A stretch of 64,000 nt of DNA from Candidatus Saccharimonadota bacterium (GCA_024697865.1 JAILSC010000019.1:23526-87525), one strand, 5' to 3'; shown: positions 1,607 through 64,000, numbered from the stretch's first letter. Made by a program: numbers and translations. Notes: a model not told the origin generated them from the sequence alone.

Positions 1607-1764
1607 TTGGGAAAACCTCAGATATTGAAATCAAAGCTCAATAACCTTTCCTGAGGACCATAAGCTTGGGCGAGCGCCCTCGAGCGTGTCCGAAGGGGAG
1701 GTTATGGGCTTTGATACCCATATCCGCTGTCTTCCCAGTTGTTAATGTTAGTTTTATTATACCA
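1607..1764 (-). promoter_or_regulatory. pnp extended -10 promoter (TGGTATAAT, 1756-1764) plus a nested-stem 5' leader of about 155 nt
   Basis: Complementary arms 1630-1647/1699-1715 and 1607-1616/1729-1738 read directly from the sequence. Confidence 0.6.
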
Positions 1765-1860
1765 AATCTTGCATTTTTTAGCAAAATATGCTATAATAAT
1801 ACAGTTAGGGCTAGTTTAGTTCTAAAGTATCTGTTGTTCTCGAAAAAAAGGGGGGGGTTA

Positions 1861-2478
1861 ATGACTACCGAGAGCACCATTTCAAGAGATGAATACGAAG
1901 CAGTCGAGATCGAATGTCGCGCCGCGCTGCACACTGCCGTGGCTAAGATTGAAAACGTTTATGAGTTCTCTAAGAGATCCGCCGAACATAATCCGTTCAG
2001 CGCCATCAGCAGCCGAATCAAAACTTTTGAATCTGCCACTGAAAAGTGTAAGCGTAAAAATTACAGTTCGTTCCGAGAACTGCACGACATCGCCGGCGTG
2101 CGCATTATTACGCCCTTTCGGTCCGATATTTATGCCGTGGTAGAGATTCTACATCGTATCCCCGGTATTAATATCTTTTCCGAAAAAGACTACGTCGAAA
2201 AGCCCAAACCTAACGGTTATTCCAGCTACCACATTGGGGCTCAAGTTGAAATTTTTTCTCCGAGCACAGGCGGCACCAAATTGGTACCCGTCGAAATCCA
2301 AATTCGTACCAAAATCATGGATGCCTGGGCTACAGCCGAGCACACCCTCAAATACAAGAACGATAATCCACCCGCTCCGGCCGAAGCGGAACTCAAGCGT
2401 GGCGCCGAGCTTTTAAGTGAACTCGAAGACATTCTTGAGCGTCTACATCAATACGACACCGACACCGACACCGACTAA
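1861..2478 (+). CDS. Small alarmone synthetase (RelA/SpoT domain, RelP/RelQ-like GTP pyrophosphokinase)
   Basis: Motifs RIKT, DIAGVRI, KDY..KPKPNGYSSYH, EIQIRT..MDAWA..EH. ATG at 1861 after a purine-rich A/G run is preferred over the TTG start in the track. Confidence 0.88.
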   Translation: MTTESTISRDEYEAVEIECRAALHTAVAKIENVYEFSKRSAEHNPFSAISSRIKTFESATEKCKRKNYSSFRELHDIAGVRIITPFRSDIYAVVEILHRIPGINIFSEKDYVEKPKPNGYSSYHIGAQVEIFSPSTGGTKLVPVEIQIRTKIMDAWATAEHTLKYKNDNPPAPAEAELKRGAELLSELEDILERLHQYDTDTDTD

Positions 2479-2490
2479 TTCATCTCCACC

Positions 2491-2518
2491 AAAAACCCGC
2501 CTAGATTTAGGCGGGTTT
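2491..2518. terminator. Hairpin terminator between the convergent SAS gene and rpsO
   Basis: AAACCCGCCTA-gatt-TAGGCGGGTTT. Confidence 0.75.
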
Positions 2519-2530
2519 CCTATTGCCAAA

Positions 2531-2797
2531 TTATTTCCTGAGGCCTAGTTTCGAGATAGTCTTCTTGTATAGCTCAAAATCAGTCTCTTCTAGGTATCTT
2601 AGAAGCTTCTTGCGCCTCCCTACCATCTGAATTAAACCTCTTTTGGCCATAAAGTCATGTTTGTTCTTCTTCACATGCTCGGTTACTTCTTTGATCCGCT
2701 CTGTGAGAATCGAAACTTGAACTTCAGGAGAACCAACGTCGTTCTTGTTACGAGCGACCTTGGCAATAGCCTTGTCTTTATTCTCTTTTGTTATCAT
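2531..2797 (-). CDS. rpsO: 30S ribosomal protein S15
   Basis: DVGSPEVQVSILTERI...HDF..KRGL..MVGRRKKLLRYL. Confidence 0.97.
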   Translation of the reverse strand: MITKENKDKAIAKVARNKNDVGSPEVQVSILTERIKEVTEHVKKNKHDFMAKRGLIQMVGRRKKLLRYLEETDFELYKKTISKLGLRK

Positions 2798-2900
2798 TGC
2801 TCCATTATATCACTTTTTCTTCAAGAAGTAAACCCTTGGGTTGCCCTACAATTTTTCCCTAAAATGTGTTATAATAAAAGCAATACTATTACCATACGCT

Positions 2901-4817
2901 ATGCAAACAATTTTTCAAATTTTTAAGAATGATCTAAAAAGCCTAGCGAAAAGCAAACTAGCCATGCTGGTTGTCGCTGGGATTATTGTTATCCCGGGTA
3001 TTTATGCCTGGCTTAATATTGATTCCAACTGGGGCCCTTACGACAACACCGGCAATATTCCTATTGCCGTAGTCAATAAAGATACCGGTGCCACCATCGC
3101 AGGCGAAAGCTTTAACATCGGCAATTCCCTCACTGACTCGCTTAAAGAAAATCACGACATGAAGTGGATTTTTACCGATGAAAAATCCGCTTTGGAAGGA
3201 GTAGAGCAAAGCAGCTATTACGGAGCCATCATCATTCCAGAAAATTTCAGCCAGAATCTCACCACTATTTTTAATAGCACCGAACCCTCAAAACCCACTT
3301 TCGATTTTTATATCAACGACAAGAAAAATCCTATCGCCCCCATCATTGCTAGCAAAGCCGCCGGCACCATCCAAGACGGCACTAACCAAGCCTTCGTAGA
3401 TACTTTGGTTTACAAAGCCGCCGATACGGCTAAAGCTATCGGCCTAACAGAAAAAGGCACCGACACCGCCAACAGCTTGATCGCCAAATTGACCGACACC
3501 AAAACTAAGGTCGGCCAACTCCGTGATATCAACCAAACTACCACTTTAGCTATTGATACTACCGGCAAATCTCTCTCTGCGCTTGAAGCGATTTTTCCTA
3601 CACTTGAAAACTTCAACCATACTGCCGAGCAGGGCATTATTGATGCCAGGAACGGCCTTAATTCTCTTAATGATATCTCTAATCTTTCTAGCGTTCAAGA
3701 GCTCACCGATCAAATTTCCGCCCAAATCGCCGAATTAGAGGCAATTCAAGCCTTATTGAATGAGCTCGCTCCCTCCGAACAATTAACAGACATTAAAACC
3801 AGGATTCAAACCATCACTGATAGCCTCACTAACCTTCAAAATAAATTTCAAGCCACTGCCAGCACTGAGCTAAAAAACATCTCCCAAAATGTTTCCCGCA
3901 CCCTAGACGGCGCCGAGACCATCATCTCTGATCTCAACGCTTCCCTGGCTAGCCTCGAAACCTCCATGCATTATGCCACTCAAGCCCTTCAAGGCGGTGC
4001 TCAGCTCGGACGAAACCTAGATCCAATCTTAGCCAATTTTCAATCTGACATTGACTCCACTATCACTATGATCAATTCCATCAAAGACAGCGAAATTTTC
4101 CAAAACCTCATCAACCTTCTTCAAAACAGCCCCGACACTATCGCCGACTTTATTTCCAGCCCCGTAGTTGCTAATAAAATCGAGATTTATCCCATTGCTA
4201 CTTACGGCTCTGAAATGGCTCCCTTCTATTCGGTCTTAGCTTGTTGGGTAGGCTCCACTATCCTAGTGGCCATTATTGCCATAGATATCAAAAACACCAA
4301 AATCACCAAACAGACCAAAAATTACCAAAAATTCTTGGGCCGCTTTCTCCTATTCGGCAGTATCGCCATATTGCAAGGTTTGGCCATCGGCATCGGAGAT
4401 TTAATCATGCAAGTTCAAACCGTCAACTGGCCTTTATTCCTTTTGACTTTAATGCTGTCTAGTTTAGTATTTTCTCTGATTATCTATGCCCTTGCTGCTG
4501 CCTTTGGCAAGATCGGTCAAGCCCTAGCCATCGTGATTTTAGTTTTGCAAGTTGCTGGCTCGGGCGGCACTTTCCCGATTGAATTGCTTCCTCAAATGTT
4601 CCAAGTTTTGCAGCCCTTTATGCCATTCGCTCCTGCCATGAACGCCGTGCGCGAAACCGTCGGTGGCTTCTACCAGCACGATTATTTAGCCAGCATTGCA
4701 CTACTATTAGTCTTCTTTGTTATCGCTCTCGTATTCGGCCTCATTTTCAGTAAACACACTTTCGCAGCTAAAGGTAAACTCCAGAAAGAACTCGAATCTA
4801 CTGGCTTAATTGATTAA
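2901..4817 (+). CDS. YhgE/Pip-family membrane protein (phage infection protein-like)
   Basis: N-terminal IPGIYAW.NI.S.WGPY.NT.NIPIAVVN.D.G, central helical region, six C-terminal TM segments with QVAGSGGTFPIE. Start taken at ATG 2901. Confidence 0.88.
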   Translation: MQTIFQIFKNDLKSLAKSKLAMLVVAGIIVIPGIYAWLNIDSNWGPYDNTGNIPIAVVNKDTGATIAGESFNIGNSLTDSLKENHDMKWIFTDEKSALEGVEQSSYYGAIIIPENFSQNLTTIFNSTEPSKPTFDFYINDKKNPIAPIIASKAAGTIQDGTNQAFVDTLVYKAADTAKAIGLTEKGTDTANSLIAKLTDTKTKVGQLRDINQTTTLAIDTTGKSLSALEAIFPTLENFNHTAEQGIIDARNGLNSLNDISNLSSVQELTDQISAQIAELEAIQALLNELAPSEQLTDIKTRIQTITDSLTNLQNKFQATASTELKNISQNVSRTLDGAETIISDLNASLASLETSMHYATQALQGGAQLGRNLDPILANFQSDIDSTITMINSIKDSEIFQNLINLLQNSPDTIADFISSPVVANKIEIYPIATYGSEMAPFYSVLACWVGSTILVAIIAIDIKNTKITKQTKNYQKFLGRFLLFGSIAILQGLAIGIGDLIMQVQTVNWPLFLLTLMLSSLVFSLIIYALAAAFGKIGQALAIVILVLQVAGSGGTFPIELLPQMFQVLQPFMPFAPAMNAVRETVGGFYQHDYLASIALLLVFFVIALVFGLIFSKHTFAAKGKLQKELESTGLID

Positions 4818-4820
4818 ACT

Positions 4821-5537
4821 ATGGAAGACCAAATTATTCTCATCGACAAACCCGCAAATATCTCGTCTTTTGGTGTCGTGGCCAAAGTCCGAGGGCATTT
4901 GAAAGCTCAATTTAGACACAAAATCAAAGTTGGCCACACTGGTACTTTGGACCCCTTTGCGACCGGACTTCTAATTCTTCTCACTGGCAAAAACACCAAA
5001 AAATCTTCCGATTTTTTAAAGCTCGATAAAGTCTATGAAGCCACCTTAAAGCTAGGGTTCGTCTCCTCTACCGGTGACCCCGAGGGGGAGATTCAAGAAT
5101 ATTCAGTTTCGGGGCCACGTCCCTCGCGCCCGTCTTCACGGAGCTCAGGCGCTCCCTCTCGGCAGCAGCCTCCGAAATCCCCGAAACTAAACACTCTTGA
5201 ATCCACCTTAGCATCCTTTGTCGGTAAGATAGAACAACGCCCGCCCAAGTTTTCAGCCATCAAAATCGGCGGCCAACGCGCTTATAAACTAGCCCGCCAA
5301 GGCCAAGATTTTGAAATCCCCACCCGCGAAGTCGAGATCTACTCTCTCGAAATTCTAAACTACAATTACCCAGAACTCACTATCCGTTGTCACGTTTCTA
5401 GTGGCACTTACATCCGTACTTTAGCTGAAGACATCGGTAAAAAACTCGGCACTGGTGCCTACCTCACCGCCCTTCGCCGCACTAAAATCGCCGACTACTC
5501 CGTAGACGACGCCCTTAAATTGGCAGACTTCTCTTAA
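4821..5537 (+). CDS. truB: tRNA pseudouridine(55) synthase TruB carrying an in-frame palindromic insert
   Basis: LIDKP, KVGHTGTLDPFATGLL, PPKFSAIKIGGQRAYKLAR, SSGTYIRTLAEDIG. Confidence 0.96.
   Translation: MEDQIILIDKPANISSFGVVAKVRGHLKAQFRHKIKVGHTGTLDPFATGLLILLTGKNTKKSSDFLKLDKVYEATLKLGFVSSTGDPEGEIQEYSVSGPRPSRPSSRSSGAPSRQQPPKSPKLNTLESTLASFVGKIEQRPPKFSAIKIGGQRAYKLARQGQDFEIPTREVEIYSLEILNYNYPELTIRCHVSSGTYIRTLAEDIGKKLGTGAYLTALRRTKIADYSVDDALKLADFS
5090..5203. repeat. In-frame palindromic element (core family 1) in truB
   Basis: 25-bp inverted arms (5090-5114/5179-5203, 3 mismatches) around a 64-bp GC-rich core homologous to the recX and polA cores. Confidence 0.85.
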
Positions 5538-5603
5538 AGCCGCTCTTGTTTTTTGTTGCCATTATGTTAAAATGAAACCATACGATAATTAAGGATTTCT
5601 ATT

Positions 5604-7205
5604 ATGGTCATACATGAATCCAATATTAAATCATTATCTATAATTTTCGGTGCATTTCTTATCGCTACTCTCCTCTCAGGCACTATTTCTCTAAACAACA
5701 ATGCTAGTGCCGATACTAATGAGGTAGATACAGTCAACGTAGACATCTTAGCCGCCTGTACTATGGCTAGAACGGATAGTACTGGCGGTAATTATAGTGC
5801 TTCTCTCATTCCAGGGCAATCTGTAGAACTTGGGCCTACTAGTGTTAAGACTATCTGTAATGACAATAATGGGTATGCCATCTATGCTATCGGCTATTCT
5901 GGCAATGCCTATACTGGTGCTACTCATACTGATCTGATTTCGGCTACTAATACTAGTTACAATATTCACACTAATACTCCTAGTGCCGCTGGTAGTAGTT
6001 CTTATTGGGCGATGAAACTAGCTAGTGTAGCTTCTGGCAATTATACTCCTACTATAGAAAATAGCTACAGTAGCTATAATGTAATACCTAATACTTATAC
6101 CAAAGTAGTTAGCCTAAACAAAGCTACTGATGCTGGTGCTGGTGCTACTGGCTCTAACTTCAATGCTACTTATGAGATTAAGGCTGCCAGTGATCAGGTG
6201 GCTGATTCTTATACTGGGAAAGTGAAGTATGTGTTAGTCCATCCTAACAGTTTTGCTCCTGGTACTTACTCCATCGCCTATAATGCCAATGGTGGTAGTG
6301 GGACGATGACGGGAGAATCTGGCATCAGTAACATGGCCGAGCATACACTAATTACCAATGCTTTTGCTCCACCTTCTGGCTACGGATTCGCTGGCTGGTG
6401 TACCATCCAAGACACTTCGCAAACTCCCCAAACTACCTGTTCTGGTGAGACCTACACCGATAGAGGAACTGTAGAACCAGGTACTATAGCTGCTAACAGT
6501 ACGCTAAATCTTTATGCCATCTGGGAAGTAGACCTCAGAACCTACATGCAAGATTTCACTTTAGCTCAATGTCAAGCCCAAGCCGCTGATGCTCCACTTA
6601 TCGTTTATGATCGTCGCGATAAATCAGACTACACCGTTCGCTACATCAACGGTGCTTGTTGGATGACTCAAAACCTCAGGATCACTGGTACCATTTCTGC
6701 TACTAACTCTAACTTTTCTAGTCCAGCTTCCATTAATACGGCCGCTGGTGGAGATTTAAGAGGTAGCAGCTCTACCTACACTGAACCTCAGTCTCATCTA
6801 GCAGATAGCACGGATGTTGAAGCTTCAACTAGCGCTCCCGAAGGCCCTTATACTATTACTCAATTAGGTGCTTGGTACAATTATTGTGCCACTTCAGCCG
6901 GGCAGTCTTGTAGTCAAACTATGCAAAGTGCCACTCAAGACATCTGTCCAGCTAATTGGCATTTACCTTCCGAAGCTCAATTTAACAGTATATCTAGTTA
7001 TGGGTCCAATCTTTCTGTTTTCCCAGGCGGATATTACAACAACGGCTCGATAACAGCAGTCGGAATCATTGGCTATTGGTGGTCCGCTACTGCACATTGG
7101 CGTAATGACCAATATTATTTATTTGCCCTCTCAAGTAGTGAGGTGGGGACTGGCTACTATGATAAATATGCGGGGCTCTTTATCAGATGCATGCGCGACG
7201 TATAA
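5604..7205 (+). CDS. Secreted/surface protein with an InlB-B-type (Listeria-Bacteroides) repeat and a C-terminal FISUMP (Fib_succ_major) domain
   Basis: Signal peptide; YSIAYNANGGSGTM...GYGFAGW...LNLYAIW repeat; D.RD..DY.VRYINGACWMTQNL, YNYCATSAG, DICPANWHLPS, GYWWSAT, FIRCMR. Confidence 0.8.
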   Translation: MVIHESNIKSLSIIFGAFLIATLLSGTISLNNNASADTNEVDTVNVDILAACTMARTDSTGGNYSASLIPGQSVELGPTSVKTICNDNNGYAIYAIGYSGNAYTGATHTDLISATNTSYNIHTNTPSAAGSSSYWAMKLASVASGNYTPTIENSYSSYNVIPNTYTKVVSLNKATDAGAGATGSNFNATYEIKAASDQVADSYTGKVKYVLVHPNSFAPGTYSIAYNANGGSGTMTGESGISNMAEHTLITNAFAPPSGYGFAGWCTIQDTSQTPQTTCSGETYTDRGTVEPGTIAANSTLNLYAIWEVDLRTYMQDFTLAQCQAQAADAPLIVYDRRDKSDYTVRYINGACWMTQNLRITGTISATNSNFSSPASINTAAGGDLRGSSSTYTEPQSHLADSTDVEASTSAPEGPYTITQLGAWYNYCATSAGQSCSQTMQSATQDICPANWHLPSEAQFNSISSYGSNLSVFPGGYYNNGSITAVGIIGYWWSATAHWRNDQYYLFALSSSEVGTGYYDKYAGLFIRCMRDV

Positions 7206-7229
7206 CGTATAGTGTGTTATAATTAACTT

Positions 7230-7835: not shown

Positions 7836-8451
7836 TCAACTTCTCGTCATCATATTTGGCTCGCTTTTTGGCAATCATTTTGTCAATTTCTTCTTCGTCA
7901 TTTCGCCCACTTAGCACTTCGTCAATTATCTCCTTGACCACTCCCTTTTTTACTAGCTCCATTCTTAAACGTTTTTGCGAAATCCCTTTTTTTACGAATC
8001 GATTTTCCACATAATATTCCGCGAACTTCCAATCATCCACATAGCCCTTGGTTTTCAATTTTCTAATTATTTCTTCCGAAAAATCAAAGGAGTCTGCTGA
8101 GGATTTTGTGGACCCAACCGGGTCCACAGGAAGTGACTGAGCCCCGTAAAGACGGGCGCGAAGGAACGTATCCGCAGAAGACTTCTTGATTTTTTTGCGA
8201 AACAAATATTCTTTAACTTCTCGCTCGCTCCGCGGCCGCACCAACACCCACTCTAACGTTCTCTGATATAGCTTACCGAATTCCGAGGCTTTCTTGCACT
8301 CTATTAATTTCTCCTCTGTCAGCGTTTGCCCAATTTTTAACTTCAAATCCACTACCTGCGTCACGTCCAGGGAAAAGGCAAACTTGCCACTTACGAACAC
8401 ATTCACTCGATTTGGGTTTTTGACACCCTGTTTTAGGTCTGTAATTTCCAT
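7762..8451 (-). CDS. recX: Regulatory protein RecX carrying an in-frame palindromic insert
   Basis: RPRSEREVKEYL, GYVDD..FAE.YV, S.KRLRMELVKKGV, YL.RQGFSY; immediately downstream of recA. Confidence 0.92.
   Translation of the reverse strand: MEITDLKQGVKNPNRVNVFVSGKFAFSLDVTQVVDLKLKIGQTLTEEKLIECKKASEFGKLYQRTLEWVLVRPRSEREVKEYLFRKKIKKSSADTFLRARLYGAQSLPVDPVGSTKSSADSFDFSEEIIRKLKTKGYVDDWKFAEYYVENRFVKKGISQKRLRMELVKKGVVKEIIDEVLSGRNDEEEIDKMIAKKRAKYDDEKLISYLCRQGFSYQLAQSRVREFEKD
8079..8194. repeat. In-frame palindromic element (core family 1) in recX
   Basis: Imperfect arms 8079-8104/8170-8194 around a 65-bp core (8105-8169) that is 53/65 identical to the polA core. Confidence 0.85.
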
Positions 8452-9476: not shown

Positions 9477-9629
9477 AATAGTATTACCTTTCTTTCCCTC
9501 CCATTATATTATATTTTCTGACCCCTGTCTACCATGAACCAAAATTTATTACAACCCCCCACCTTTTGGCCCCTGTCGATAAAAACAACCGCTATTCTTT
9601 AAAATCACCAAATATGCTACAATGAAACT

Positions 9630-10640: not shown

Positions 10641-11425
10641 TGAAAATTCTAAACGGTTCCGAACTAGCTGGCTTTATTAAAGAGCGTCAGGCCCACGTGG
10701 TTCGCAGCTTAAATCCTAGGCCTAAACTTCTGATCATTCGCGACAACGATAATCCTGTAATCATGAAATATGTCAATCTTAAAATCAAATACGGTGAAGA
10801 CATCGGTGTCGCCGTAGAAGATTTTTGCGCTGACAGTTCAGCTGCAATCGCCACCAAAATTCAATCTGCCAATCAAGATCCCGCCATTAGTGGTATTATC
10901 ATCCAACTACCTCTCACCGATAAATCGCAAACCGACGAGCTCTGCAATCTCATCGCTCCCGAAAAAGATGTCGACGGTCTCGGCGCAGAAGCTAAATTTG
11001 ACTCCGCCACCGCCACTGCCATTAATTGGCTGCTTACTGGCTACGATATTAACCTGCAAAACGCTAAAATCGCTCTCGTCGGGCGCGGTAAGCTCGTCGG
11101 CGCACCATTATACAAAATGTTCACGAACTCCGGCTACGACATCGAACTCTTCCACCGTGGTTCAGACTTGACAAAGCTTAAACAATATGATGTAATTATT
11201 ACAGCTACTGGTGTACCTGGCTTAATTTCTAGCGATATGATTAGTCCTGGTGCCGTTATCGTCGACGCCGGTACCGCCAGCGAAGACGGAGTCTTAAAGG
11301 GCGATGTCGCTCCCGAAATTCGTGATCGTCAAGATCTCACCGCTATCACCCCAGTAAAGGGCGGTGTCGGGCCACTTACCATCACCTGCCTCTATGATCA
11401 CGTCATTCGTGCTGCTCAAAAATAA
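10640..11425 (+). CDS. folD: Bifunctional methylenetetrahydrofolate dehydrogenase/cyclohydrolase
   Basis: GIIIQLPL, KDVDGL, VGRGKLVG.P, GAVIVDAG, TPVKGGVGPLTI. Confidence 0.93.
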   Translation: MKILNGSELAGFIKERQAHVVRSLNPRPKLLIIRDNDNPVIMKYVNLKIKYGEDIGVAVEDFCADSSAAIATKIQSANQDPAISGIIIQLPLTDKSQTDELCNLIAPEKDVDGLGAEAKFDSATATAINWLLTGYDINLQNAKIALVGRGKLVGAPLYKMFTNSGYDIELFHRGSDLTKLKQYDVIITATGVPGLISSDMISPGAVIVDAGTASEDGVLKGDVAPEIRDRQDLTAITPVKGGVGPLTITCLYDHVIRAAQK

Positions 11426-11434
11426 TTTCTCAAC

Positions 11435-11470
11435 AAAAAACGAACCAATGCGTGCGCTGGTTCGTTTTTT
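11435..11470. terminator. Bidirectional terminator hairpin after folD
   Basis: AAAAAACGAACCA...TGGTTCGTTTTTT. Confidence 0.75.
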
Positions 11471-11539: not shown

Positions 11540-11551
11540 AAACCTTAAAGT

Positions 11552-15954: not shown

Positions 15955-16049
15955 CAACAAAAATGGTGCGAGTGGAGGGAGTCGCACCGCAGGTCCGACT
16001 CCCGAACCGAAAGTCTATGCAACAAAAATGGTGCGAGTGGAGGGAGTCG
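15955..16049. repeat. 30-bp direct repeat of the tRNA-Gly 3' end plus trailer, separated by a 35-bp insert (core family 3)
   Basis: CAACAAAAATGGTGCGAGTGGAGGGAGTCG at 15955-15984 and 16020-16049. Confidence 0.9.
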
Positions 16050-16115: not shown

Positions 16116-16233
16116 TGGGGTGGGATAGCGGGATCGAACCGCCGTTTGCCCCTTGGGACGCTTCGGCGGTTCCAGCCGCAATACGCCACGCTGAAACCAT
16201 TGTGTGGGGTGGGATAGCGGGATCGAACCGCCG
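16116..16233. repeat. 29-bp direct repeat of the tRNA-His 3' end separated by a 60-bp insert (core family 2)
   Basis: TGGGGTGGGATAGCGGGATCGAACCGCCG at 16116-16144 and 16205-16233. Confidence 0.9.
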
Positions 16234-18988: not shown

Positions 18989-19729
18989 ATGGATAATAAT
19001 CAAATATCGCAAACCCCAAACCCAGAGCCGGTATTAGAGCCTACGCCGAACCCGATACCAGAACCAACTCCGGAACCAACTCCAGAGCCGACTCCGGAAC
19101 CAACTCCGAAACCCATTCCTACTACTCCGCCCCAAAAGTCCGCCAAAAAACTTACTATCGCAGTAGTCATCTGTCTTATTTTATCAGCGGTTGGCATAGG
19201 CTTAGGTATCTATAACATTATCCAACACAATAATCTTGCAAATTCTTTCGATACCGCAAACATTACTAATGGCACCCAGAATAATTCAGATCAGTCCACT
19301 AACGCTTTTTCAGGCCAAACTACTAGCGCCAACAGTGTAGAGTACAAATGTACTCCTCCTACCAGCACAGACGATATCCTCAGCATCAACATTCAAAGTA
19401 GCCCCGAAGCCAGGTTCCTCATTACTCCTAACCCCGGCGAAATTGATTTCATTAATTACACCACCGATGAAACCGGTGAAAAAGTCGAGTCCAGCACCAT
19501 GGCAACTACTGACACCTCCGAAATCGTCAACTATGCCTATCAAAATACTCTTAACAATTTGGGCGATCCCGACTACGATCAGATCTATTCCACCGGCCCC
19601 GACACTCTTTGGTATATCAGCCTCCAAAGCAACACCAACAACAGTGAATGTATGGTCATCGGCCAAGATAACCCTCCTGCCTGGTTCACTACTCTTGTCG
19701 ACATGCTTGAAGCTAAAAGGAATAGTTAA
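18989..19729 (+). CDS. Hypothetical single-pass membrane protein with an N-terminal (PEPT)n repeat
   Basis: PEPTPEPTPEPTP repeat encoded at about 19020-19120, one TM helix, soluble C-terminal domain. Confidence 0.7.
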   Translation: MDNNQISQTPNPEPVLEPTPNPIPEPTPEPTPEPTPEPTPKPIPTTPPQKSAKKLTIAVVICLILSAVGIGLGIYNIIQHNNLANSFDTANITNGTQNNSDQSTNAFSGQTTSANSVEYKCTPPTSTDDILSINIQSSPEARFLITPNPGEIDFINYTTDETGEKVESSTMATTDTSEIVNYAYQNTLNNLGDPDYDQIYSTGPDTLWYISLQSNTNNSECMVIGQDNPPAWFTTLVDMLEAKRNS

Positions 19730-23591: not shown

Positions 23592-24209
23592 ATGGATAAC
23601 GAAATTACCGCCATCAAAGAGTGGCTCGGCACTGGTTCGATCAATCTCTTCGGCCTCCCCATGTCCGGCAAAGACACCCAAGGGATTAGATTAGCCGAAA
23701 CCTTAGGCGGTAAATTCTTAAGTTCCGGCATGATTATCCGAGCTATGGAAAAACAAACCAAGCAGCATTTTTCCGATCAAGGCATTCTTGCGCCTACTAA
23801 TATTTTCTACGAATGGGTTTTGCCCTATTTTAAACGTCCTGATCTCAGTCAATACCCTTTAATTCTTTCTTCTATTGGTCGTTGGCACGGTGAAGAAGAT
23901 CGCGTCATGTCTGCCGCAGCTGATGCTGGCCACGAAACCAAAGCCGTTATCGTTCTTAATGTCTCTGAAGCCGACGTCGCCAAACGTTTTGAGGCTGCCA
24001 AAGTCCTCAATGACCGTGGCGATCGCGCCGACGACAAAAACACTCAAATCTTTCAAACCAGAATTAAGGAATTTCGCATCAAAACCGCTCCAGTACTGCA
24101 ATATTATATGTCTAAAGGTTTACTTATTGAAGTTAATGGTGACCAAACCCGTGAAAAAGTCTTTCACGAAATTATCGACAAACTCTACCAACGCGCTATT
24201 ACCGATTAA
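23592..24209 (+). CDS. Nucleoside monophosphate kinase, adenylate-kinase family (divergent paralog)
   Basis: FGLPMSGKDTQ, LSSG.IIR, R.DD....F..RIKEF...T.PVL.YY. Confidence 0.8.
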   Translation: MDNEITAIKEWLGTGSINLFGLPMSGKDTQGIRLAETLGGKFLSSGMIIRAMEKQTKQHFSDQGILAPTNIFYEWVLPYFKRPDLSQYPLILSSIGRWHGEEDRVMSAAADAGHETKAVIVLNVSEADVAKRFEAAKVLNDRGDRADDKNTQIFQTRIKEFRIKTAPVLQYYMSKGLLIEVNGDQTREKVFHEIIDKLYQRAITD

Positions 24210-31649: not shown

Positions 31650-31726
31650 GGGGATGTAGCTCAGCTGGTTAGAGCATGCGTCTTATACACGCAGGGTCCT
31701 AGGTTCGAGTCCTAGCATCCCTACCA
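31650..31726 (+). tRNA. tRNA with TAT anticodon (nominally Ile-UAU) on a Val-like body
   Basis: Cloverleaf; anticodon arm TGCGT-CTTATAC-ACGCA; CCA. Confidence 0.88.
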
Positions 31727-36386: not shown

Positions 36387-36415
36387 GTATCATATATTAT
36401 AACACGGAGTAATCA

Positions 36416-36499
36416 GAATTTCGTAAATGTGCCCTAAGGGACATAAAGACTTGGCCAGAGCGGCCTGGAGCGTGCCCGAAGGGCACGCTTGCGAAATTC
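36416..36499. repeat. Intergenic multi-hairpin palindromic element (core family 4)
   Basis: Outer arms GAATTTCGTAA/TTGCGAAATTC; 36458-36483 matches 1672-1697 at 23/26. Confidence 0.75.
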
Positions 36500-36502
36500 T
36501 AA

Positions 36503-37252
36503 TTACTCTTCCGGCTTTCTTAATTTATAATAAATCGACGGCGCAAATCTAATTCCTGCTAATGCCTTCTGTGCCTTGTCTTCCATTTTTACTAAATTCT
36601 GTGTACCGAATATCTTTTTTAGACCTCTACTGCGGAAATTCGACACCGATAATACCTTTTCTTGCTTAAATCCAACTTTGTCAAAAATCTCTTCTACATA
36701 TTTTGGATGATAATTGTAAAATCCATCCTTTGATATTTCTTTATAGTTAGCTACTTTACGATCAAACGGATTTACCTTGCTTCGCCCAGTCACATATCGC
36801 GCAATTTTTGGCAAAGTCCGTTTGTTTGCAACCTCAATTACTGCTACGCCACCTGGTTTCAAAACTCTATATAATTCAGCGATGGCCTTATCTAAATGTT
36901 TCAAATGATGAGTCACTCGTATCATCATCAATCCATCTAATTCATTATCCTTAAATGGTAACTTATAGATATCTCCGGCTTTAGTTTCGATTTTATCACC
37001 GTAAATTTCTTTTGCCTGTTTCAGCTCAGACTTCGAATAATCAAAAATATATACTTTTCGAGCTCGCTTCAAATATTCACTAGCTAGTCTGCCATAGCCC
37101 CCACCAATATCCGCAAATTTTTCCATTCTTTTCGGCAACAATTTTCGTATTGCCATTCGGTCTGCCTGATCTTCATACTCCCGATCTGCCTTTTCCCAGA
37201 ATTCGGTTTTGTAGTCATAGCCGTTATAATCTGATACTATTTTTTCACTCAT
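36503..37252 (-). CDS. Class I SAM-dependent methyltransferase
   Basis: FADIGGGYGR, GDIYKLPFKD, L.RVLKPGG. Confidence 0.9.
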   Translation of the reverse strand: MSEKIVSDYNGYDYKTEFWEKADREYEDQADRMAIRKLLPKRMEKFADIGGGYGRLASEYLKRARKVYIFDYSKSELKQAKEIYGDKIETKAGDIYKLPFKDNELDGLMMIRVTHHLKHLDKAIAELYRVLKPGGVAVIEVANKRTLPKIARYVTGRSKVNPFDRKVANYKEISKDGFYNYHPKYVEEIFDKVGFKQEKVLSVSNFRSRGLKKIFGTQNLVKMEDKAQKALAGIRFAPSIYYKLRKPEE

Positions 37253-43312: not shown

Positions 43313-43479
43313 TTTTTCGGGCACCTCCTCCGCCCACCAGTTATGTTTATGACCTATTTATATCCATTTTACCACAAAAAACACAATCATAAACATAAAA
43401 AATGGCGAATAACAGGATATTCATCCTAGTTCTTCTCTTCAGATTACCAAATCCAAAGCAAGCTTTGGATTTACTAACC

Positions 43480-43576
43480 TGGCGGAAAGGACAGGATTCG
43501 CACCGAAGGTCCGAATCCCCAACTAAAAAAGTCTACTGGAGACGACGGATTAACTTGGCGGAAAGGACAGGATTCG
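43480..43576. repeat. 21-bp direct repeat of the tRNA-Ser 3' end separated by a 55-bp insert (core family 3)
   Basis: TGGCGGAAAGGACAGGATTCG at 43480-43500 and 43556-43576. Confidence 0.9.
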
Positions 43577-46735: not shown

Positions 46736-46812
46736 AACAAAAATGGCGGAACCGTTTGCCCCTTGGGACGCTCCGGTGGAGCCGTTTTTGTGCAACAAAA
46801 ATGGCGGAACCG
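46736..46812. repeat. 19-bp direct repeat of the tRNA-Asp 3' end plus trailer, separated by a 39-bp insert (core family 2)
   Basis: AACAAAAATGGCGGAACCG at 46736-46754 and 46794-46812. Confidence 0.88.
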
Positions 46813-51270: not shown

Positions 51271-53670
51271 CTATAATTCTCCCCAATTATTACCGGTTGT
51301 AACCTCTACGGCAAGTTTTATTTCTAATTCTGGTGCCACCGACTCCATTTCTTTCTGCAAAATCTGAGCCACCCGTTCAGCCAATTTAGTTTCGCACTCT
51401 ACAATTAAAGAGTCGTGTACTTGCATTACTAATTCCGCTCCAGCAGGCAACACTGCGGCCACTTTAATCATCGCCCGTTTCATTAGATCCGCCTCCGTTC
51501 CCTGAATTGGCATATTTTGTGCCGCTCTCTCCGCTGCTTGGCGAATCACAAAATTAGTCGACTTTACGTCCGGTGTTGGCCGTCTTCGGCCATAGTAAGT
51601 CTCCACGTACCCATTTTCTCGCGCTTGTTTTAAGGTTGCGTCCAAATACTTCTTGATTGGCGCTCTTAGCTCAAAATAATTATCAATAAATTCTTTAGCT
51701 TGCCCAATTGGCATCTTTGCTGCATCCGCTAAGCCTTTTACGCTCATGCCATAAAGTATGCCAAAATTAATCACTTTTGCTGCTCGACGCTGCGCTTTCG
51801 TTACTTTGTTCAGTGATACATCAAACGCTTCCGCCGCAGTCTTAGTGTGAATGTCTATTCCTTTATTGAAATCCTCTATTAATGCTTGGTCACCAGCTAG
51901 TACTGCCGCTAGCCTCAATTCGAACTGCGAATAATCCGCCGAAACCAATACTTTCCCAGCAGGCGCTACAAAGCCCGTCCGAATTCGTTTTCCTTCTTCC
52001 GTCCTCACCGGAATATTTTGCAAATTCGGGTCCTTTGATGACAACCGTCCCGTTGCCGTTACATTCTGCGTAAAGGTCGTATGAATTCGCCCCTTCTCGT
52101 CTGCCAATTCCGGCATCGGCGTGATGTAAGTCGATAATAATTTCGCAGCTTCTCGGTATTCCATTAATTTCGGGATCACTAGATGCAAATCTTTTAGTTT
52201 TTGAAGTTCCTTCGCTCCGGTGGAATATCCCCTAGTAGTTTTTTTGATTCCCTTTACTGGCAACCGAAGATCCACAAATAACACTTCCGATAACTGCACC
52301 GGTGAATTTACGTTAAATTCTTTACCCGCTAAGTCCCATATTTCTCGCTCTAATCGCCCCACCTCTTCCGTATATTCTTTCTTCAAATTCTCAAAATACT
52401 TTCGGTCAATCAACATCCCCTTCTTTTCCATCTTGTAGAGTACCGGTATCAGCGGCAAATCAAACTCCTTATAGACTTGATAAAGTCTCGGCATTTTTTC
52501 AAACTCTGCTTGTTGTCTTGTATAAGCCTCTGTTGTATCTGTCGCCTCAAACAATGTCGCCTGTTCCCGCTTTAGAGGATTCAATAAAAACCCTGCCTGG
52601 CCCACATCCCAAAACTTTTCACCTGCTAAAATCTTCTCCGCCACCTTCTCGTTATGATGCATTAATGATTTTACGTCATAATCGATAATTATAGCTGAGC
52701 TCAATTGCTTCTGATCCGAAAATTTGTGAGCCCTGCTGGGCTCACGAGAAGTGACTGAGCCCTGTGAAGACAGGCGCGAAGGAACGTGTCTCGGAGCAGG
52801 AGCTTCGAGCTCACTAAAATTAAATTTTCTAATTAATGAATTAAACTCTAACTTCTTTAGCCCATTAACTACTTTTTCAGGATCAAATTCAAAATCGGGA
52901 ATCTCGGCTAGCTTCACCGGCGCATCAAACATAATCTGCGCCAACTGACGTGACATATATGCTGATTCTTTTCCCTTAATCAATTTTTTCTGCACCGAGC
53001 CTTTAATTTCATCAATATGCGCATAAATCTCATCCAAATTCCCATATTCGTTCAGTAGTTTTGCTGCCGTCTTTTCTCCCACTCCTGGTACTCCCGGAAT
53101 ATTGTCTGATGCGTCTCCCTTCAAGGCCTTGAGATCTAAAAATTGTGATTTCGAAATCCCATATTTTTCTTCTACTTCTTTTACGTCAATTTGTTCAATG
53201 TTAGAAAACCCTTTCAAGATCCGCCACATGTGAGTGTTATTATCTACGATCTGCAACATATCTAAATCCGACGAAATAATATAGGTCTCCCAACCCCCAG
53301 CCTCATCCGCTTGTCGGCTCAAAGTACCGATAATATCGTCTGCTTCAAATTTTGACACTTCTATAAAGGCCCAACCCAAATCATTAATTAATTCTTCAAG
53401 GAGCGGTATTTGCGCGTAAAAATCATCACCTGGCTTTACTCGGCCCGCCTTATAATCGGCAAAAATCTTTCTCCGACTCTCCGCCGAATCTCGTGAATCC
53501 CACGCTACCACTACTTTAGTTGGCGCCAACCGTTTTACAATCTCCATTGCAATCGCTGCAAAACCATACACACCTCCCGTTGGCGTACCATCAGACAAAC
53601 TCAAAGCCCCCATCGCATAATATCCTCGATAAAATACCGATTTGCCGTCAATCAGTACTAATCGCTTCAT
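51271..53670 (-). CDS. polA: DNA polymerase I (5'-3' exonuclease plus polymerase, shortened middle domain) carrying an in-frame palindromic insert
   Basis: LIDGKS..YR.YYA, EADDIIG, GDASDNIPGV.G.GEKTA, TGRLSS..PNLQNIP, SADYSQFELR, AKVINFG..YG, QVHDSL. Confidence 0.97.
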   Translation of the reverse strand: MKRLVLIDGKSVFYRGYYAMGALSLSDGTPTGGVYGFAAIAMEIVKRLAPTKVVVAWDSRDSAESRRKIFADYKAGRVKPGDDFYAQIPLLEELINDLGWAFIEVSKFEADDIIGTLSRQADEAGGWETYIISSDLDMLQIVDNNTHMWRILKGFSNIEQIDVKEVEEKYGISKSQFLDLKALKGDASDNIPGVPGVGEKTAAKLLNEYGNLDEIYAHIDEIKGSVQKKLIKGKESAYMSRQLAQIMFDAPVKLAEIPDFEFDPEKVVNGLKKLEFNSLIRKFNFSELEAPAPRHVPSRLSSQGSVTSREPSRAHKFSDQKQLSSAIIIDYDVKSLMHHNEKVAEKILAGEKFWDVGQAGFLLNPLKREQATLFEATDTTEAYTRQQAEFEKMPRLYQVYKEFDLPLIPVLYKMEKKGMLIDRKYFENLKKEYTEEVGRLEREIWDLAGKEFNVNSPVQLSEVLFVDLRLPVKGIKKTTRGYSTGAKELQKLKDLHLVIPKLMEYREAAKLLSTYITPMPELADEKGRIHTTFTQNVTATGRLSSKDPNLQNIPVRTEEGKRIRTGFVAPAGKVLVSADYSQFELRLAAVLAGDQALIEDFNKGIDIHTKTAAEAFDVSLNKVTKAQRRAAKVINFGILYGMSVKGLADAAKMPIGQAKEFIDNYFELRAPIKKYLDATLKQARENGYVETYYGRRRPTPDVKSTNFVIRQAAERAAQNMPIQGTEADLMKRAMIKVAAVLPAGAELVMQVHDSLIVECETKLAERVAQILQKEMESVAPELEIKLAVEVTTGNNWGEL
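52696..52813. repeat. In-frame palindromic element (core family 1) in polA
   Basis: Imperfect arms 52696-52721/52789-52813 around a 65-bp core (52723-52787). Confidence 0.85.
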
Positions 53671-54249: not shown

Positions 54250-54278
54250 ATAACAAGTATAGCATGTTATAATGGGGT

Positions 54279-56765: not shown

Positions 56766-56781
56766 GCAAACTTCCTATAAA

Positions 56782-57162: not shown

Positions 57163-57170
57163 TTTGTCTC

Positions 57171-58142: not shown

Positions 58143-58221
58143 TATTCTCCATTATATCATACTTCTGGCCCCTGCAACCCTATTTTATGATTTTTCCAAA
58201 CTTTTTTCTGTCACCCCTATA

Positions 58222-58296
58222 TTAGCAGTGTTGACATGCGAGTGCTAGCGTGCTACAATAGGGGTAGACTTAGCACTCTCATGCAACGAGTGCTAA
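58222..58296 (+). promoter_or_regulatory. dnaK promoter with tandem CIRCE elements
   Basis: Perfect CIRCE at 58270-58296; degenerate CIRCE at 58222-58248 overlapping TTGACA (58231-58236); -10 TACAAT at 58254-58259. Confidence 0.92.
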
Positions 58297-58331
58297 TGGA
58301 ATCAAAGTAACCCAAATTACGGAGGAATAAT

Positions 58332-60221: not shown

Positions 60222-60248
60222 AAAATAGCCCCTTAAGGGGCTATTTTT
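60221..60248 (+). terminator. dnaK terminator
   Basis: AAAAATAGCCCC-ttaa-GGGGCTATTTTT. Confidence 0.85.
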
Positions 60249-60267
60249 TTATGCTATAATATTAAAT

Positions 60268-61023: not shown

Positions 61024-61024
61024 G

Positions 61025-62344
61025 ATGCATAAATTCGGTACCGACGGCATCAGAAGTAAAGCTGAAGATTTTACTCCTGACTTTCTTGCCCGCATTATAA
61101 AGGGTCTAATTAATTACGCTGGCGACAATATCAAGATTTTCCTCGCCGGTGACACCCGTGAATCTACTGAATGGATCCTGCAAGACCTGGCTATCGCCTG
61201 TGAAACTTTTGGCATCGAATATGGTGTCGCCGGAGTTATTCCTACTCCTGGCATCAATTATTGTTTTTATGAAATGGGTTTTGATTTTGCTATTGATGTT
61301 ACAGCTTCCCATAACCCTTATACCGACAACGGGATCAAAGTTTTTGAACGCGGTCCTAGCCAGGGCACCAAACTCTGCGAACAAGGCCGCGCCAGCATTG
61401 AAGCCGTCCTTGCAGACACGAATTTTCTATACCAACCAGCTTCGCCCACCGATCGTGAGAATCTTCATGCCGAAGCCTTAGATTTATACATCCAACATCT
61501 CACCGACTACATTGGTCAAACCGATTTCACCGGACTTCACATCGGAATGGATTGCGCTAACGGCGCTACCAGTGTTATCAACAAAACTATCTTCGAAAAA
61601 TTTGGCGCCAAAGTTGAACTAATCAACTGCCAATCTGATTACAATACCGAAATTAATCGAGATTGTGGTAGCACCCATCTTGCACAGCTTCAAAATCTTG
61701 TCACCGAAAATCACTTAGATTTTGGTGTGGCTTTCGATGGTGATGGCGATCGTTGTCTAGCCGTAGATGCTGAAGGCAACGAAGTGGACGGTGACGAAAT
61801 GCTAGCCTTTCTCTCTCAATACTTCAAACTCGACGCCATTGTTACCACCGTTATGGCTAACCAAGGTTTGCTTAACTGGGCCAAAGATTCCCACATTCAT
61901 ACCGAAATCACCGCCGTTGGTGATCCTAATGTTGTTGCCGCTATGCTTTCTCAAAATATTAAAATTGGCTCCGAACAAAACGGCCACGTCATTCTGCCCG
62001 GCCTCACTTCCGGTGATGGTATGCTCACCGCCTTAATGACAACTAAAGCCGTCGCCGAATCTAACAAATCCTTAAAAGAGCTAGCTAGCATTATTACTAA
62101 ATTCCCGCAAATAATTGTTAATATGACGGCCACGCCAGAGCAAAAACAAGCCCTAAAGGAAAAAGACGCCGCCAAACAATTATTACTAGAATATAGCCAA
62201 AAACTAGAATCTGTATCGGGTCGCCTGTTAGTTCGTCCTTCCGGCACCGAAAACCTCATTCGTATTACTATGTGGGGCGACAATGCTGAAATTATCAACC
62301 AATTAGCCAATGAACTAAAAACTAAACTAGGAGAAGTTTTATGA
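61025..62344 (+). CDS. glmM: Phosphoglucosamine mutase (phosphohexomutase family)
   Basis: FGTDGIR, TASHNP..DNGIK, DCANGA, AFDGDGDR, LVRPSGTE. Confidence 0.85.
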   Translation: MHKFGTDGIRSKAEDFTPDFLARIIKGLINYAGDNIKIFLAGDTRESTEWILQDLAIACETFGIEYGVAGVIPTPGINYCFYEMGFDFAIDVTASHNPYTDNGIKVFERGPSQGTKLCEQGRASIEAVLADTNFLYQPASPTDRENLHAEALDLYIQHLTDYIGQTDFTGLHIGMDCANGATSVINKTIFEKFGAKVELINCQSDYNTEINRDCGSTHLAQLQNLVTENHLDFGVAFDGDGDRCLAVDAEGNEVDGDEMLAFLSQYFKLDAIVTTVMANQGLLNWAKDSHIHTEITAVGDPNVVAAMLSQNIKIGSEQNGHVILPGLTSGDGMLTALMTTKAVAESNKSLKELASIITKFPQIIVNMTATPEQKQALKEKDAAKQLLLEYSQKLESVSGRLLVRPSGTENLIRITMWGDNAEIINQLANELKTKLGEVL

Positions 62345-62781
62345 ACATCACTACTCTAAAAGAATATACCCCCGAAACTGCCACTCGCGTTCGCGAATTA
62401 TTAATCCAACTTTCCCGCAGCGGCAAAGACAAAGGAGAAATCCCCAAAGAATGGTTCGAGGATTTAATTGCTTCACCTTGGCATGATATGCTAATTGCCG
62501 AAGAAGATGGTCAAATTCTTGGCATCGCTACTCTTTCTATTACTATGGGTCCCGGCATTCGCAAAAATGCCTACCTCGAAGATTTCGTCACCGACTCCAC
62601 AATCCGCGGCAAAGGCATCGGTAGTCAATTATGGGACGCTATGCTCGATTGGGCCGCTAAGAAAGGCTGCAAGAATCTTGAATTCACCTGTGGCAACGGT
62701 CGTGAAGCTTCACAAGAATTTTACAAACACAAAGGCGCCGCAGTTTACGACACTAATTTCTTCCGCAAACCTATCGCATAG
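62341..62781 (+). CDS. GNAT-family acetyltransferase
   Basis: LEDFVTD..IRGKGIGSQL, FYKHKG. Confidence 0.88.
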   Translation: MNITTLKEYTPETATRVRELLIQLSRSGKDKGEIPKEWFEDLIASPWHDMLIAEEDGQILGIATLSITMGPGIRKNAYLEDFVTDSTIRGKGIGSQLWDAMLDWAAKKGCKNLEFTCGNGREASQEFYKHKGAAVYDTNFFRKPIA

Positions 62782-64000
62782 ATTACTACTGGTAGCAAAT
62801 AAATATGCAGCGCATTGGGAAGCCCCGAGAAGAACAATAGCGAAACCCCATAAGCTATCAACAAACCAATCAATACCACCCTCAAAGGGCTCTGCCAAAA
62901 AGTTCGCACCATCAAAATCAAGGTCAGCACACATAGTGCCGCTCCTACCATGCCAGTTTCTAATAGGATCGAAACGTATTGATTTTGCACAATTTCTTTT
63001 GGTGCTGACGATAATCCATTTACATATAATGCTTGTCCTGCACCGCCCAAGCCTACGCCGAACATTACCGTACTAAAATCTTGGCGCCAAACCCGAAATG
63101 CCGATTCCGACAGTTCCAGTCTCGTATCCGTTGATTCAGCCACATACCCGTCGAACACTGCCTCCGTTGAACCGTCTGTTGCGCCCACATCCCCACTATC
63201 ATTTATTCCAAGGTCAATCACACCCAATGATAAATGATTAATTACCTTGGATATTCCGGTAAAATAAGTATCGTCAGTTCTTGATACCTGTGCCATAATT
63301 CCCTGAATATTCAAAGTAAATAAGAACGACAAAACAATCACTAATCCGATCGACAACCATCGCCATTTTTTAGTTTGAACTATTTGCCAAATCATCATCA
63401 CTAGCGTAGCTACCAGTAATGCATAAATCGCCCCCCGCGAAAACGTCAAAAACAATGTAGCGGTGAAGACGAAGAAAAGGATGGTATAATGCTTCAGCGA
63501 AGCGGCATTTCGAAGCGCGGCAGCGCGAGAGTTAGCGCCGGCCGCCCGTGGCGCTCGCCCCTTGGGACGCGAATTGCCGAAGGCAAACGGGCCGGCCGGA
63601 CGCGGCCGCGAGCGAAGCATTAACCAGCCAACCACTATTGTTGGTGCCAACAATAAATTTCCCATAAACTGCGGCTCAATCGCAAATCCATCCGGATGCG
63701 GAAAGCCAAACATAGAATACGTACATCCAGCACACATCAAGCTATATTCTCGTGGCACTCCCACTAGATCCAATACACATTGAATCCAACACCACGCACA
63801 AATCAGTAGTGAGGACCCAAAAAACGCTTTCCAGAATTTGACCTTCAAGCTCTCTTTTTTAAATAGCTCACGTAAACTTATAATCCCGTCTATCGCCAAA
63901 TATAATAGCCACACAATTCCCACCACCAATATTCCGCGCAAAGCATTCAGTGACCATAATACTGACAAAGAAAGCCAGATCGGCAACAGCAACCACATCC
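62745..64000 (-). CDS. O-antigen ligase (WaaL/Wzy_C)-like membrane protein with an in-frame GC-rich insert; probably 5'-truncated by the window edge
   Basis: Multiple TM helices; EPQF.GN, LTFSRGA, FGVGLGG, NQYVSILLETG.VG. Confidence 0.75.
   Translation of the reverse strand, partial: MWLLLPIWLSLSVLWSLNALRGILVVGIVWLLYLAIDGIISLRELFKKESLKVKFWKAFFGSSLLICAWCWIQCVLDLVGVPREYSLMCAGCTYSMFGFPHPDGFAIEPQFMGNLLLAPTIVVGWLMLRSRPRPAGPFAFGNSRPKGRAPRAAGANSRAAALRNAASLKHYTILFFVFTATLFLTFSRGAIYALLVATLVMMIWQIVQTKKWRWLSIGLVIVLSFLFTLNIQGIMAQVSRTDDTYFTGISKVINHLSLGVIDLGINDSGDVGATDGSTEAVFDGYVAESTDTRLELSESAFRVWRQDFSTVMFGVGLGGAGQALYVNGLSSAPKEIVQNQYVSILLETGMVGAALCVLTLILMVRTFWQSPLRVVLIGLLIAYGVSLLFFSGLPNALHIYLLPVVIYAIGLRKKLVS
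63487..63622. repeat. In-frame GC-rich nested palindrome (links core families 2 and 4)
   Basis: Outer arms TAATGCTTC/GAAGCATTA; contains GCCCCTTGGGACGC (63557-63570), shared with the tRNA-His and tRNA-Asp inserts. Confidence 0.8.

Follow-up and report, generated by a model that had tools for sequence, protein, structure and literature searches.

How do GC-rich hairpins come to stand at ten places in one stretch of bacterial DNA, each enclosed by long inverted arms that belong to its own locus? The question is raised by 64 kb from Candidatus Saccharimonadota bacterium (GCA_024697865.1 JAILSC010000019.1:23526-87525), referred to here at its full length as the window. The window has a GC content of 44% and a GC skew that is negative throughout, and its PolA and TruB homologues place the source near Candidatus Nanosyncoccus, as a ruminant-gut Saccharibacterium. 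A preliminary description had claimed ten loci with a conserved core inside locus-specific inverted arms. All ten are found where it had placed them, and the architecture holds well outside the window, in 23 non-redundant cores of one family from related genomes. The arms of several copies prove to be native host sequence, and stem pairs vary together between alleles. The explanation that we favor, to which we give an even chance, is that the cores are selfish GC-rich hairpins whose stems are host sequence, paired through fold-back or template-switch copying, with selection for harmless sites and recombination between strains. The loci are listed below, with core families lettered A to D.

1608..1738, minus strand: pre-existing hairpin of the pnp 5' leader, outer stem 1608-1625 with 1721-1738
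1626..1720, unstranded: pnp-leader element, arms 1630-1651 and 1694-1715, family A core at about 1652-1693
5090..5203, minus strand: truB element, arms 5090-5114 and 5179-5203, family B core 5115-5178 in reverse orientation
8079..8194, plus strand: recX element, arms 8079-8104 and 8173-8194, family B core 8105-8172, forward; the recX gene is on the minus strand and the element is in frame
15955..16049, minus strand: tRNA-Gly unit, native 3' end with 9-nt flank 16020-16049, 35-nt family C insert 15985-16019, exact 30-nt copy 15955-15984
16116..16233, minus strand: tRNA-His unit, native 3' end 16205-16233, 60-nt insert with family D core 16145-16204, exact 29-nt copy from T stem to CCA 16116-16144
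36402..36509, unstranded: element in the methyltransferase (MTase)/tRNA-Arg spacer, arms 36406-36426 and 36489-36509, 62-nt conserved family A unit 36427-36488
43403..43576, minus strand: tRNA-Ser array, native 3' end 43556-43576; unit 1 with 55-nt family C body 43501-43555 and exact 21-nt copy 43480-43500; unit 2 with 62-nt body 43418-43479 and degenerate copy 43403-43417
46736..46812, minus strand: tRNA-Asp unit, native 3' end with flank 46794-46812, 39-nt insert 46755-46793, exact 19-nt copy 46736-46754
52696..52813, plus strand: polA element, arms 52696-52722 and 52791-52813, family B core 52723-52790, forward
63487..63622, unstranded: element in the waaL-like gene, a 136-nt nested palindrome of 68% GC, in frame

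Family assignment within the window was performed with BLASTN, each locus being compared with the whole window. About 2.3 Mb of related loci (numbered with the prefix L), all from metagenome assemblies, were gathered and searched with nhmmer profiles, which returned about 10 matches for family A and 53 for family B. The census of B cores comprises 23 non-redundant full-length copies, whose enclosing arms were determined by folding. Strains were compared using a 97.5-98% identical strain (one 89.8-kb scaffold; L081, L171, L174) and a second lineage (L167, L175).

The cores sort into about five families. Family A joins the pnp leader and the MTase/tRNA-Arg spacer (26 nt at 88%, E 4e-4). In family B, the recX and polA cores, both forward, share 40 nt at 92.5% (E 5e-12) or, over a longer stretch in which an inner hairpin carries compensatory changes, 68 nt at 81%, and the truB core matches both in reverse orientation (E 1e-5). 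Family C holds tRNA-Gly and tRNA-Ser (30 nt at 87%, E 1e-4) and family D tRNA-His and tRNA-Asp (25 nt at 96%, E 8e-7). The waaL element had been counted in one system with the D cores, which was the wrong family: it shares with them a 14-mer only, at E 0.03, the weakest link among the ten loci, and it groups with a further, nested family whose peptide (..GPSPRADGANSRAAALRN..) recurs in the truB of relatives.

The GC content of the cores is 59-69% against 44% for the window, and the loci fold with z-scores of -3 to -9 relative to shuffled sequences. In a GC-corrected scan of the whole window, polA, recX, the MTase/tRNA-Arg spacer and pnp are the four most structured 130-nt windows. The B core consists of two hairpins; in the second, CCCGT-RAMG-ACGGG between flanking G-C pairs, conservation is high and GC/CG covariation is seen. 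Loops of the UNCG- and GNRA-like kinds occur in the elements. The stability of the fold tracks the orientation of the core rather than the sense of the gene. Around each of the 23 non-redundant B cores stand 23-38 bp (median 31), nearly all of them Watson-Crick pairs, and the stem sequence is different at every locus, although a short inner motif, TTCGGGG...CCCCGAA, recurs in many copies. The window and L036 have in common a 62-nt unit, at 93.5% identity, that stands within unrelated stems in the two.

Four of the inserts (truB, recX, polA and waaL) lie inside open reading frames (ORFs), in frame and free of stops, and encode low-complexity peptides rich in Pro, Ser and Arg. In relatives, B cores are found in TruB, RecX, PolA, LepA/EF4, Fpg, arginyl-tRNA synthetase (ArgRS) and spacers, with Fpg and ArgRS (two positions) recognized by motifs in translations only; one spacer core is situated directly upstream of a Xer-type recombinase gene (L038). 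A chimeric 79-aa query of core-encoded peptides, compared with proteins, returned only three weak candidate hosts. Two ideas about these coding copies were rejected. Removal at the RNA level, intron-like or through a bulge-helix-bulge, does not fit arms that are native residues and coding copies that are, every one, in frame and stop-free. Adaptation to openness in all six frames does not fit either, the elements being open in 1-3 frames only, like shuffled sequences.

The origin of the arms can be read at truB. The spacing between TGDPEG and FSAIK is 43-44 residues in other Saccharibacteria and 65-66 in the ruminant clade. When solved TruB structures are aligned, GEIQE and PKSPKLNTLESTLASF fall on native residues, and about 21 residues are extra. 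The arms occupy native TruB codons (EIQEY.. and ..KLNTLES), so that the insert is the core alone and the 25-nt arms are codons at native positions that have been turned complementary. Uninterrupted relatives (L104, L106, L107) retain EI.EY on the left and differ on the right, and the right arm therefore looks overwritten by an inverted left arm. The arms had been taken for added copies of the target; at truB, as at polA, the net gain is in fact the core alone, 21-22 codons, and native sequence was overwritten.

Nine truB alleles carry a stem at the same codon register with differing sequences, and 15 of its 22 pairs have changed on both sides. Among all cells of the alignment 84% are paired, compared to 28-43% with slid partners, and none of 500 shuffles attains the observed values. 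Several alleles have perfect stems of 17-25 bp. Nearly all mismatches in the outer 16 pairs are of the transition type (22 of 23), and on the sense strand they comprise 9 G.U and 13 A.C. Since the mismatches are transitions without a bias for sense RNA, they point to fold-back or template-switch copying at the level of DNA. The pattern suggests that the truB stems may be palindromes that are made and re-made in DNA and then decay neutrally, rather than structures kept by selection on sense RNA.

The cores within these stems turn over. An insert is present at this site in nearly all of 120 TruB homologues, with at least eight peptide types. One of these is what the window core encodes when its other strand is read in that frame; another, the common LSEVTTENEGASPVTTGASDP type, is homologous to core B and is also found in the PolA of relatives. 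A lineage about 92% identical around truB carries a B core in the opposite orientation, about 35% diverged by eye, within different inner arms. Simple inversion was rejected for the window and L167, because their truB cores also differ by about 35% by eye. Thus, cores undergo inversion, replacement or exchange inside stems that persist, and the preliminary reading has to be modified in that one set of arms can enclose, in relatives, a different core or an inverted one. In two other clades of Saccharibacteria (L115-L126 and L128-L166) the TruB loop carries unrelated insertions of 31 and 14 residues; it is either a general permissive hot spot or a place that holds old, decayed elements.

At polA, the element sits in the AT-rich linker between the 5'-nuclease and polymerase domains, which measures 37-38 residues in empty relatives and 59 here (+21-22). 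The left arm aligns with residues of Taq polymerase. Between strains that share the element there are two transitions, both within the stem. The PolA homologues P0029, P0007 and P0096 have tandem or nested linker inserts that sum to about 60-70 residues, P0029 being 895 aa long compared to about 760-785 aa for empty-site PolA. The LepA of relative L091 shows a second manner of building a stem. Compared with solved structures, its left arm is native up to Aquifex position 185 and the protein resumes at 190; the roughly 41 extra residues are the core and a second arm of about 17 residues that reads as the native flank inverted. A stem can thus arise by addition as well as by overwriting.

The tRNA-linked loci share a further feature. 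Seven tRNA genes were detected in the window with ARAGORN and Rfam (these seven are the only Rfam hits at gathering score), and four of them are followed by a 3'-end unit with an exact duplicate of 30 nt (Gly), 29 nt (His), 21 nt (Ser) or 19 nt (Asp). Across all loci, 13 of 79 tRNAs have a copy of at least their last 17 nt, at a distance of 48-168 nt downstream and none further. The copies start in the T loop (positions 56-59) or the T stem, and most stop exactly at CCA. The bodies of the units end with a short inverted copy of the T loop or T stem and a GC hairpin, which in family C reads TCG-GACCTNCGGTG-CGA. The tRNA-Asp insert combines a full-length but degenerate inverted copy of the tRNA end with a family D core, and the unit is terminator-like on the opposite strand.

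Empty sites and the exact duplicates support the reading that the tRNA arms are target sequence. The tRNA-Ser empty allele (..CCTTTCCGCCA|TTTTTTATG) occurs in a 97.5% identical strain, and the window allele is longer by 153 nt: a 55-nt body, an exact 21-nt copy, a 62-nt body and a degenerate copy of 15 nt, after which the original flank resumes. Here the duplicate that had been reported is real, while the extent of the locus had been drawn too small; it consists of two tandem units and a degenerate third copy (43403-43555). In L042, compared with L024, the downstream tRNA copy retains the original flank and terminator. The arrangement could be taken for the attL/attR pair of a T-loop integrase, and just as well for a self-contained hairpin with arms copied from the adjacent tRNA end; an integrase is not present.

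Two side observations concern the tRNA genes. The L085 contig, from another sample, ends inside the tRNA-Gly duplicate (window 16001), so these repeats probably break short-read assemblies of the clade. The tRNA-Ile at 31650-31726 has the anticodon TAT (UAU) instead of the usual CAU with lysidine, which is uncommon in bacteria.

Three of the ten loci (tRNA-Ser, the pnp leader and the MTase/tRNA-Arg spacer) are absent in compared strains; the tRNA-Gly/His locus lies outside the strain comparison. At pnp, the window has 95 nt in place of 14 nt (CAGCCCCTATCTGG) carried by two related lineages. The element has entered the leader hairpin at its apical loop, and the outer stem of this hairpin is found in the empty alleles and in more distant relatives as well; in E. 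coli the pnp leader hairpin is a target of RNase III. Its inner arms have no counterpart in the empty allele and resemble the arms that L029 has around its orthologous insertion. Compared with the sister strain L171, identity drops from 98.2% (1-1625) to 93.2% (1721-6952), and the step falls exactly at the pnp-leader element. The alignment suggests a tract of homologous recombination that would end at the pnp hairpin, and because identity falls exactly at the element, the pnp alleles may have come by recombinational exchange and not by recent creation.

In the MTase/tRNA-Arg spacer, about 97-101 nt are missing from two related lineages. The outer right arm matches the flank of the empty site and recurs, inverted, as the outer left arm. 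An apparent similarity of the inner arm to a native 8-mer downstream was also seen. No short target-site duplication was found at the hairpin-type empty/filled pairs compared. The proposal that the outer stem is built from the target thus fits truB, the LepA of a relative and the MTase/tRNA-Arg spacer, through a native arm or an inverted flank; it is not supported at pnp, where the outermost stem pre-exists in the empty alleles, and at the inner arms of pnp and L007, which are without counterpart. For the pnp outermost stem, relatives lacking the core already have both arms, which the preliminary description had named as a refutation; this concerns that part of that locus.

How might such loci arise? 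Template switching is reported to create reverse-complement copies and to repair imperfect stems to perfect ones in one step (PMC8794818; PMC7202029), and new sequence that is the reverse complement of adjacent sequence is found at the second arm of LepA and the outer arm of the MTase/tRNA-Arg element. In the explanation that we favor, cores of about 35-68 nt, each with one or two stable hairpins and belonging to at least five families, would have colonized AT-rich genomes of ruminant-gut Saccharibacteria. Copies would survive only where harmless, in frame in permissive loops and linkers (where they are presumably translated), at the apex of the pnp leader, in spacers and 3' of tRNAs. The long stem would not be the end of a transposon; it would be host sequence made into an inverted repeat. 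During replication or repair, a nascent strand would fold back on the core hairpin and copy the flank just synthesized, and this copying would either overwrite the opposite flank with length unchanged (truB, polA) or append the flank again in inverted form (spacers and the LepA of a relative). Repeated copying would keep stems paired while their sequence drifts, and recombination between strains would spread filled and empty alleles. A tRNA 3'-end copy would be left beyond the insert because only products with an intact tRNA survive. Both the template-switch mechanism and the movement of the cores themselves we infer. An enzyme acting in trans that copies and inverts the target had been proposed; it is unneeded for the stems, for which template switching at replication suffices, and no such enzyme was found.

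Several points weigh against this explanation. No event has been caught between true sister genomes, and the filled and empty alleles stand beside the boundary of a recombination tract and may be old. The inner arms at pnp and L007 lack a recognizable source at the empty site, so that some stem sequence may travel with the element or come from elsewhere. Insertion and template switching are insufficient for the truB site, where similar arms hold many core types in both orientations, and tRNA copies that run from the T arm to CCA, with tandem accretion, resemble the products of site-specific recombination. Translation of the inserts is presumed from their frame and conservation, and no DNA intermediate was observed; in the metatranscriptomes found, the organism is present in traces only.

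The truB and tRNA patterns would be expected if the elements behaved as cassettes of a tyrosine recombinase (Xer-, integron- or integrase-like) that reads the hairpin, with cores inserted, exchanged and inverted at fixed junctions and with integration at tRNA T loops. Such an enzyme would account for at least eight core types in both orientations within the same truB arms, for the T-arm-starting copies behind 13 of 79 tRNAs, and for the L042 copy with its retained, attR-like flank; the L038 core directly upstream of a Xer-type gene also points this way. We nevertheless consider it unlikely, since no recombinase gene lies inside any unit (the bodies are 35-62 nt), a conserved junction motif was not demonstrated, no kb-scale element with the same flanking repeats was found, and the insertion sites are numerous and unrelated in sequence. 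A broader proposal, that dedicated machinery reads DNA hairpins by their structure, inserts or exchanges cores at the apex or the tRNA T arm and primes fold-back synthesis by which the target becomes copied and inverted, is possible but on the unlikely side. If true, hairpin-reading machinery would represent a new mode of transposition or cassette exchange that remodels the loops of essential proteins and builds tRNA 3'-end arrays in which the tRNA end serves as the 'repeat', and an enzyme driving such moves would offer a new kind of structure-guided DNA insertion tool. Rather unlikely, in our judgment, is a classical non-autonomous transposon of the MITE (miniature inverted-repeat transposable element) or Rickettsia palindromic element (RPE) type, in which the whole hairpin is mobilized by a transposase in trans and the arms are fast-diverging terminal inverted repeats with compensatory changes. 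Empty sites that lack the arms as well as the core (pnp inner stem, L007, L029, L048), the related arms of the window and L029 pnp insertions, the inner motif common to many B copies, and a separate family with conserved arms in relatives all agree with it. It is contradicted by arms that align to native residues of TruB, LepA and PolA, by a net gain at truB and polA of the core only, by near-identical cores with unrelated arms and by hairpin-type copies without target-site duplication. The preliminary description had seen no transposase, and none is recorded among the called genes of near-identical strains that span most of the window; transposase, integrase, reverse-transcriptase and Y1/HUH-type Pfam families are alike without a record in that set.

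Improbable, too, is that the hairpins are functional RNA structures under selection, such as RNase III or decay-control stems, terminators or mRNA stabilizers, with covariation reflecting RNA function. The covariation of the stems is strong, one copy lengthens the pnp leader hairpin, the tRNA-Asp unit is terminator-like, and the two positions at which the polA stem differs between strains alternate between G-C and G.U on the sense strand. The truB mismatches, however, have no sense-strand preference (9 G.U vs 13 A.C), fold stability follows the core rather than gene sense, and cores stand in both orientations in many unrelated coding regions. Rfam covariance models run on the window at E up to 5 had zero overlap with any element, and close strains manage without the elements. 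The chance that the elements are assembly artefacts or low-complexity expansions is negligible: the source sequences are metagenome assemblies and the insert peptides are of low complexity, but the same elements occur in independent assemblies from many samples and sources, their nucleotide similarity between loci reaches E 5e-12, and their folding z-scores reach -9. In the viral contigs scanned, the B core had 0 matches and a 16-base D motif had 6, judged to be about chance level, so an origin from phage is unsupported.

If the favored explanation is true, ultra-small genomes (~1 Mb) of the Candidate Phyla Radiation (CPR) tolerate active selfish DNA in essential genes (TruB, PolA, RecX, LepA, Fpg, ArgRS), and an inserted hairpin can rewrite neighboring host codons into its own stem. 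The loci would then represent a natural, recurrent form of template-switch mutation that builds and maintains long coding stems. The elements serve as strain-level markers and offer a route to palindrome dynamics, the tolerance of protein loops and recombination in Saccharibacteria. Annotation gains as well: the additional low-complexity stretches of CPR proteins and the pseudo-tRNA 3' ends that follow tRNA genes become recognizable.

Other features of the window and its relatives were recorded. A near-perfect 16-bp hairpin (AGTTGGCTAGTTCA-GCTCCAGG-TGAACTAGCCAACT) at 25231-25270, in ORF 24199-25656, is without a GC-rich core and is the fifth most structured window of the scan. A 12-nt tandem repeat (GAACCAACTCCG-like) at 19037-19120 encodes a Pro/Thr/Glu-rich repeat within an ORF, and the sister strain has one repeat unit fewer (12-nt indel at 19078). 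At 11421-11435, other strains (L085, L167, L171) have about 3.5 kb extra with TrbL_3 (type IV secretion) and two unannotated genes, which is an island insertion or deletion polymorphism. A hairpin family of about 150 nt in relatives (L002:4551 and 6667, the two copies in L002; L007:4056; L034:8046; L045:7784) displays the opposite pattern, with conserved long arms (..CGCCAAGATAAAAATTACAAC / GTTGTAATTTTTATATGGG..) and a variable structured apex; it may represent a gene for a small RNA or an element of another kind.

The elements are not a member of any system with which we compared them, and our literature search found no description of elements of this type in Saccharibacteria or CPR. RPEs are about 100-150 bp long and conserved over their full length, stems included. 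They are short palindromic repeats of several families in a reduced genome, often in frame in unrelated housekeeping genes whose protein function is preserved (PMC10969869). Our elements resemble them as palindromic repeats in frame in many unrelated ORFs (truB, recX, polA and waaL in the window; LepA, Fpg and ArgRS in relatives). They are set apart from the RPE description in that conservation is confined to a core of 35-68 nt, with stems made of host sequence particular to each locus; the phylum also differs, and RPEs are not known to associate with tRNA 3' ends. Mitochondrial GC clusters are GC hairpins in an AT-rich genome that are strain-polymorphic, with altered flanks ('co-conversion tracts'), merger or nesting and a transposition mechanism that is unknown, and yeast GC42 has a short AG target-site motif (PMC4478555); the double-hairpin elements (DHE) of Allomyces and the repetitive hairpin-forming elements (RHE) of sponges are comparable in the account given there (Paquin 2000 and Erpenbeck 2009, through PMC4478555). 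GC-rich, often double hairpins in a genome of lower GC content, with three strain-polymorphic loci, are a likeness in mode of working, and homology is not claimed. GC clusters are organellar and mostly intergenic, and host-coding stems and tRNA 3'-end duplication are undescribed for them.

Repetitive extragenic palindromes (REPs) measure 20-40 bp. Their GTAG/CGTC head is conserved (PMC3733652). They share with integron attC sites the property of hairpin repeats read by structure as single strands, and the size of our elements, about 60-140 nt, overlaps that of attC. Unlike REPs and REPINs, which are extragenic and travel with a RAYT gene, many copies here are intragenic; in attC the ends are conserved and the center is variable, the reverse of what is seen here, and the window has no array and no intI. 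In contrast to MITEs, terminal repeats are not conserved among copies, and the tRNA units carry direct repeats of 19-30 nt instead. These units resemble the att sites of tRNA genes, in that a direct repeat of the tRNA 3' end (T arm or loop to CCA) bounds the insert, the tRNA is regenerated and tandem accretion occurs. They differ from tRNA integrative elements in having inserts of 35-62 nt that are non-coding, with no nearby integrase, and an inverted copy of the tRNA end joined to a GC hairpin.

Long near-perfect inverted repeats in functional coding sequence, both arms of which encode protein, are known from the mitochondrial genes of Nematomorpha (PMC6649704) and show that a protein can stay functional with long stems in its gene; those palindromes are without a conserved mobile core, belong to animal mitochondria and have conserved residues in both arms. 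We read the window's elements as a variant of palindromic selfish DNA, RPE-like and GC-cluster-like, with stems drawn from host sequence, which we did not find described for this phylum. Perfect stems, multi-base covariation and overwritten flanks are features that they share with template-switch (quasipalindrome) mutation. That is a mutational mechanism and not a family of elements, and it leaves the spread of cores to new loci unexplained; at the present loci an inserted hairpin would start it again and again.

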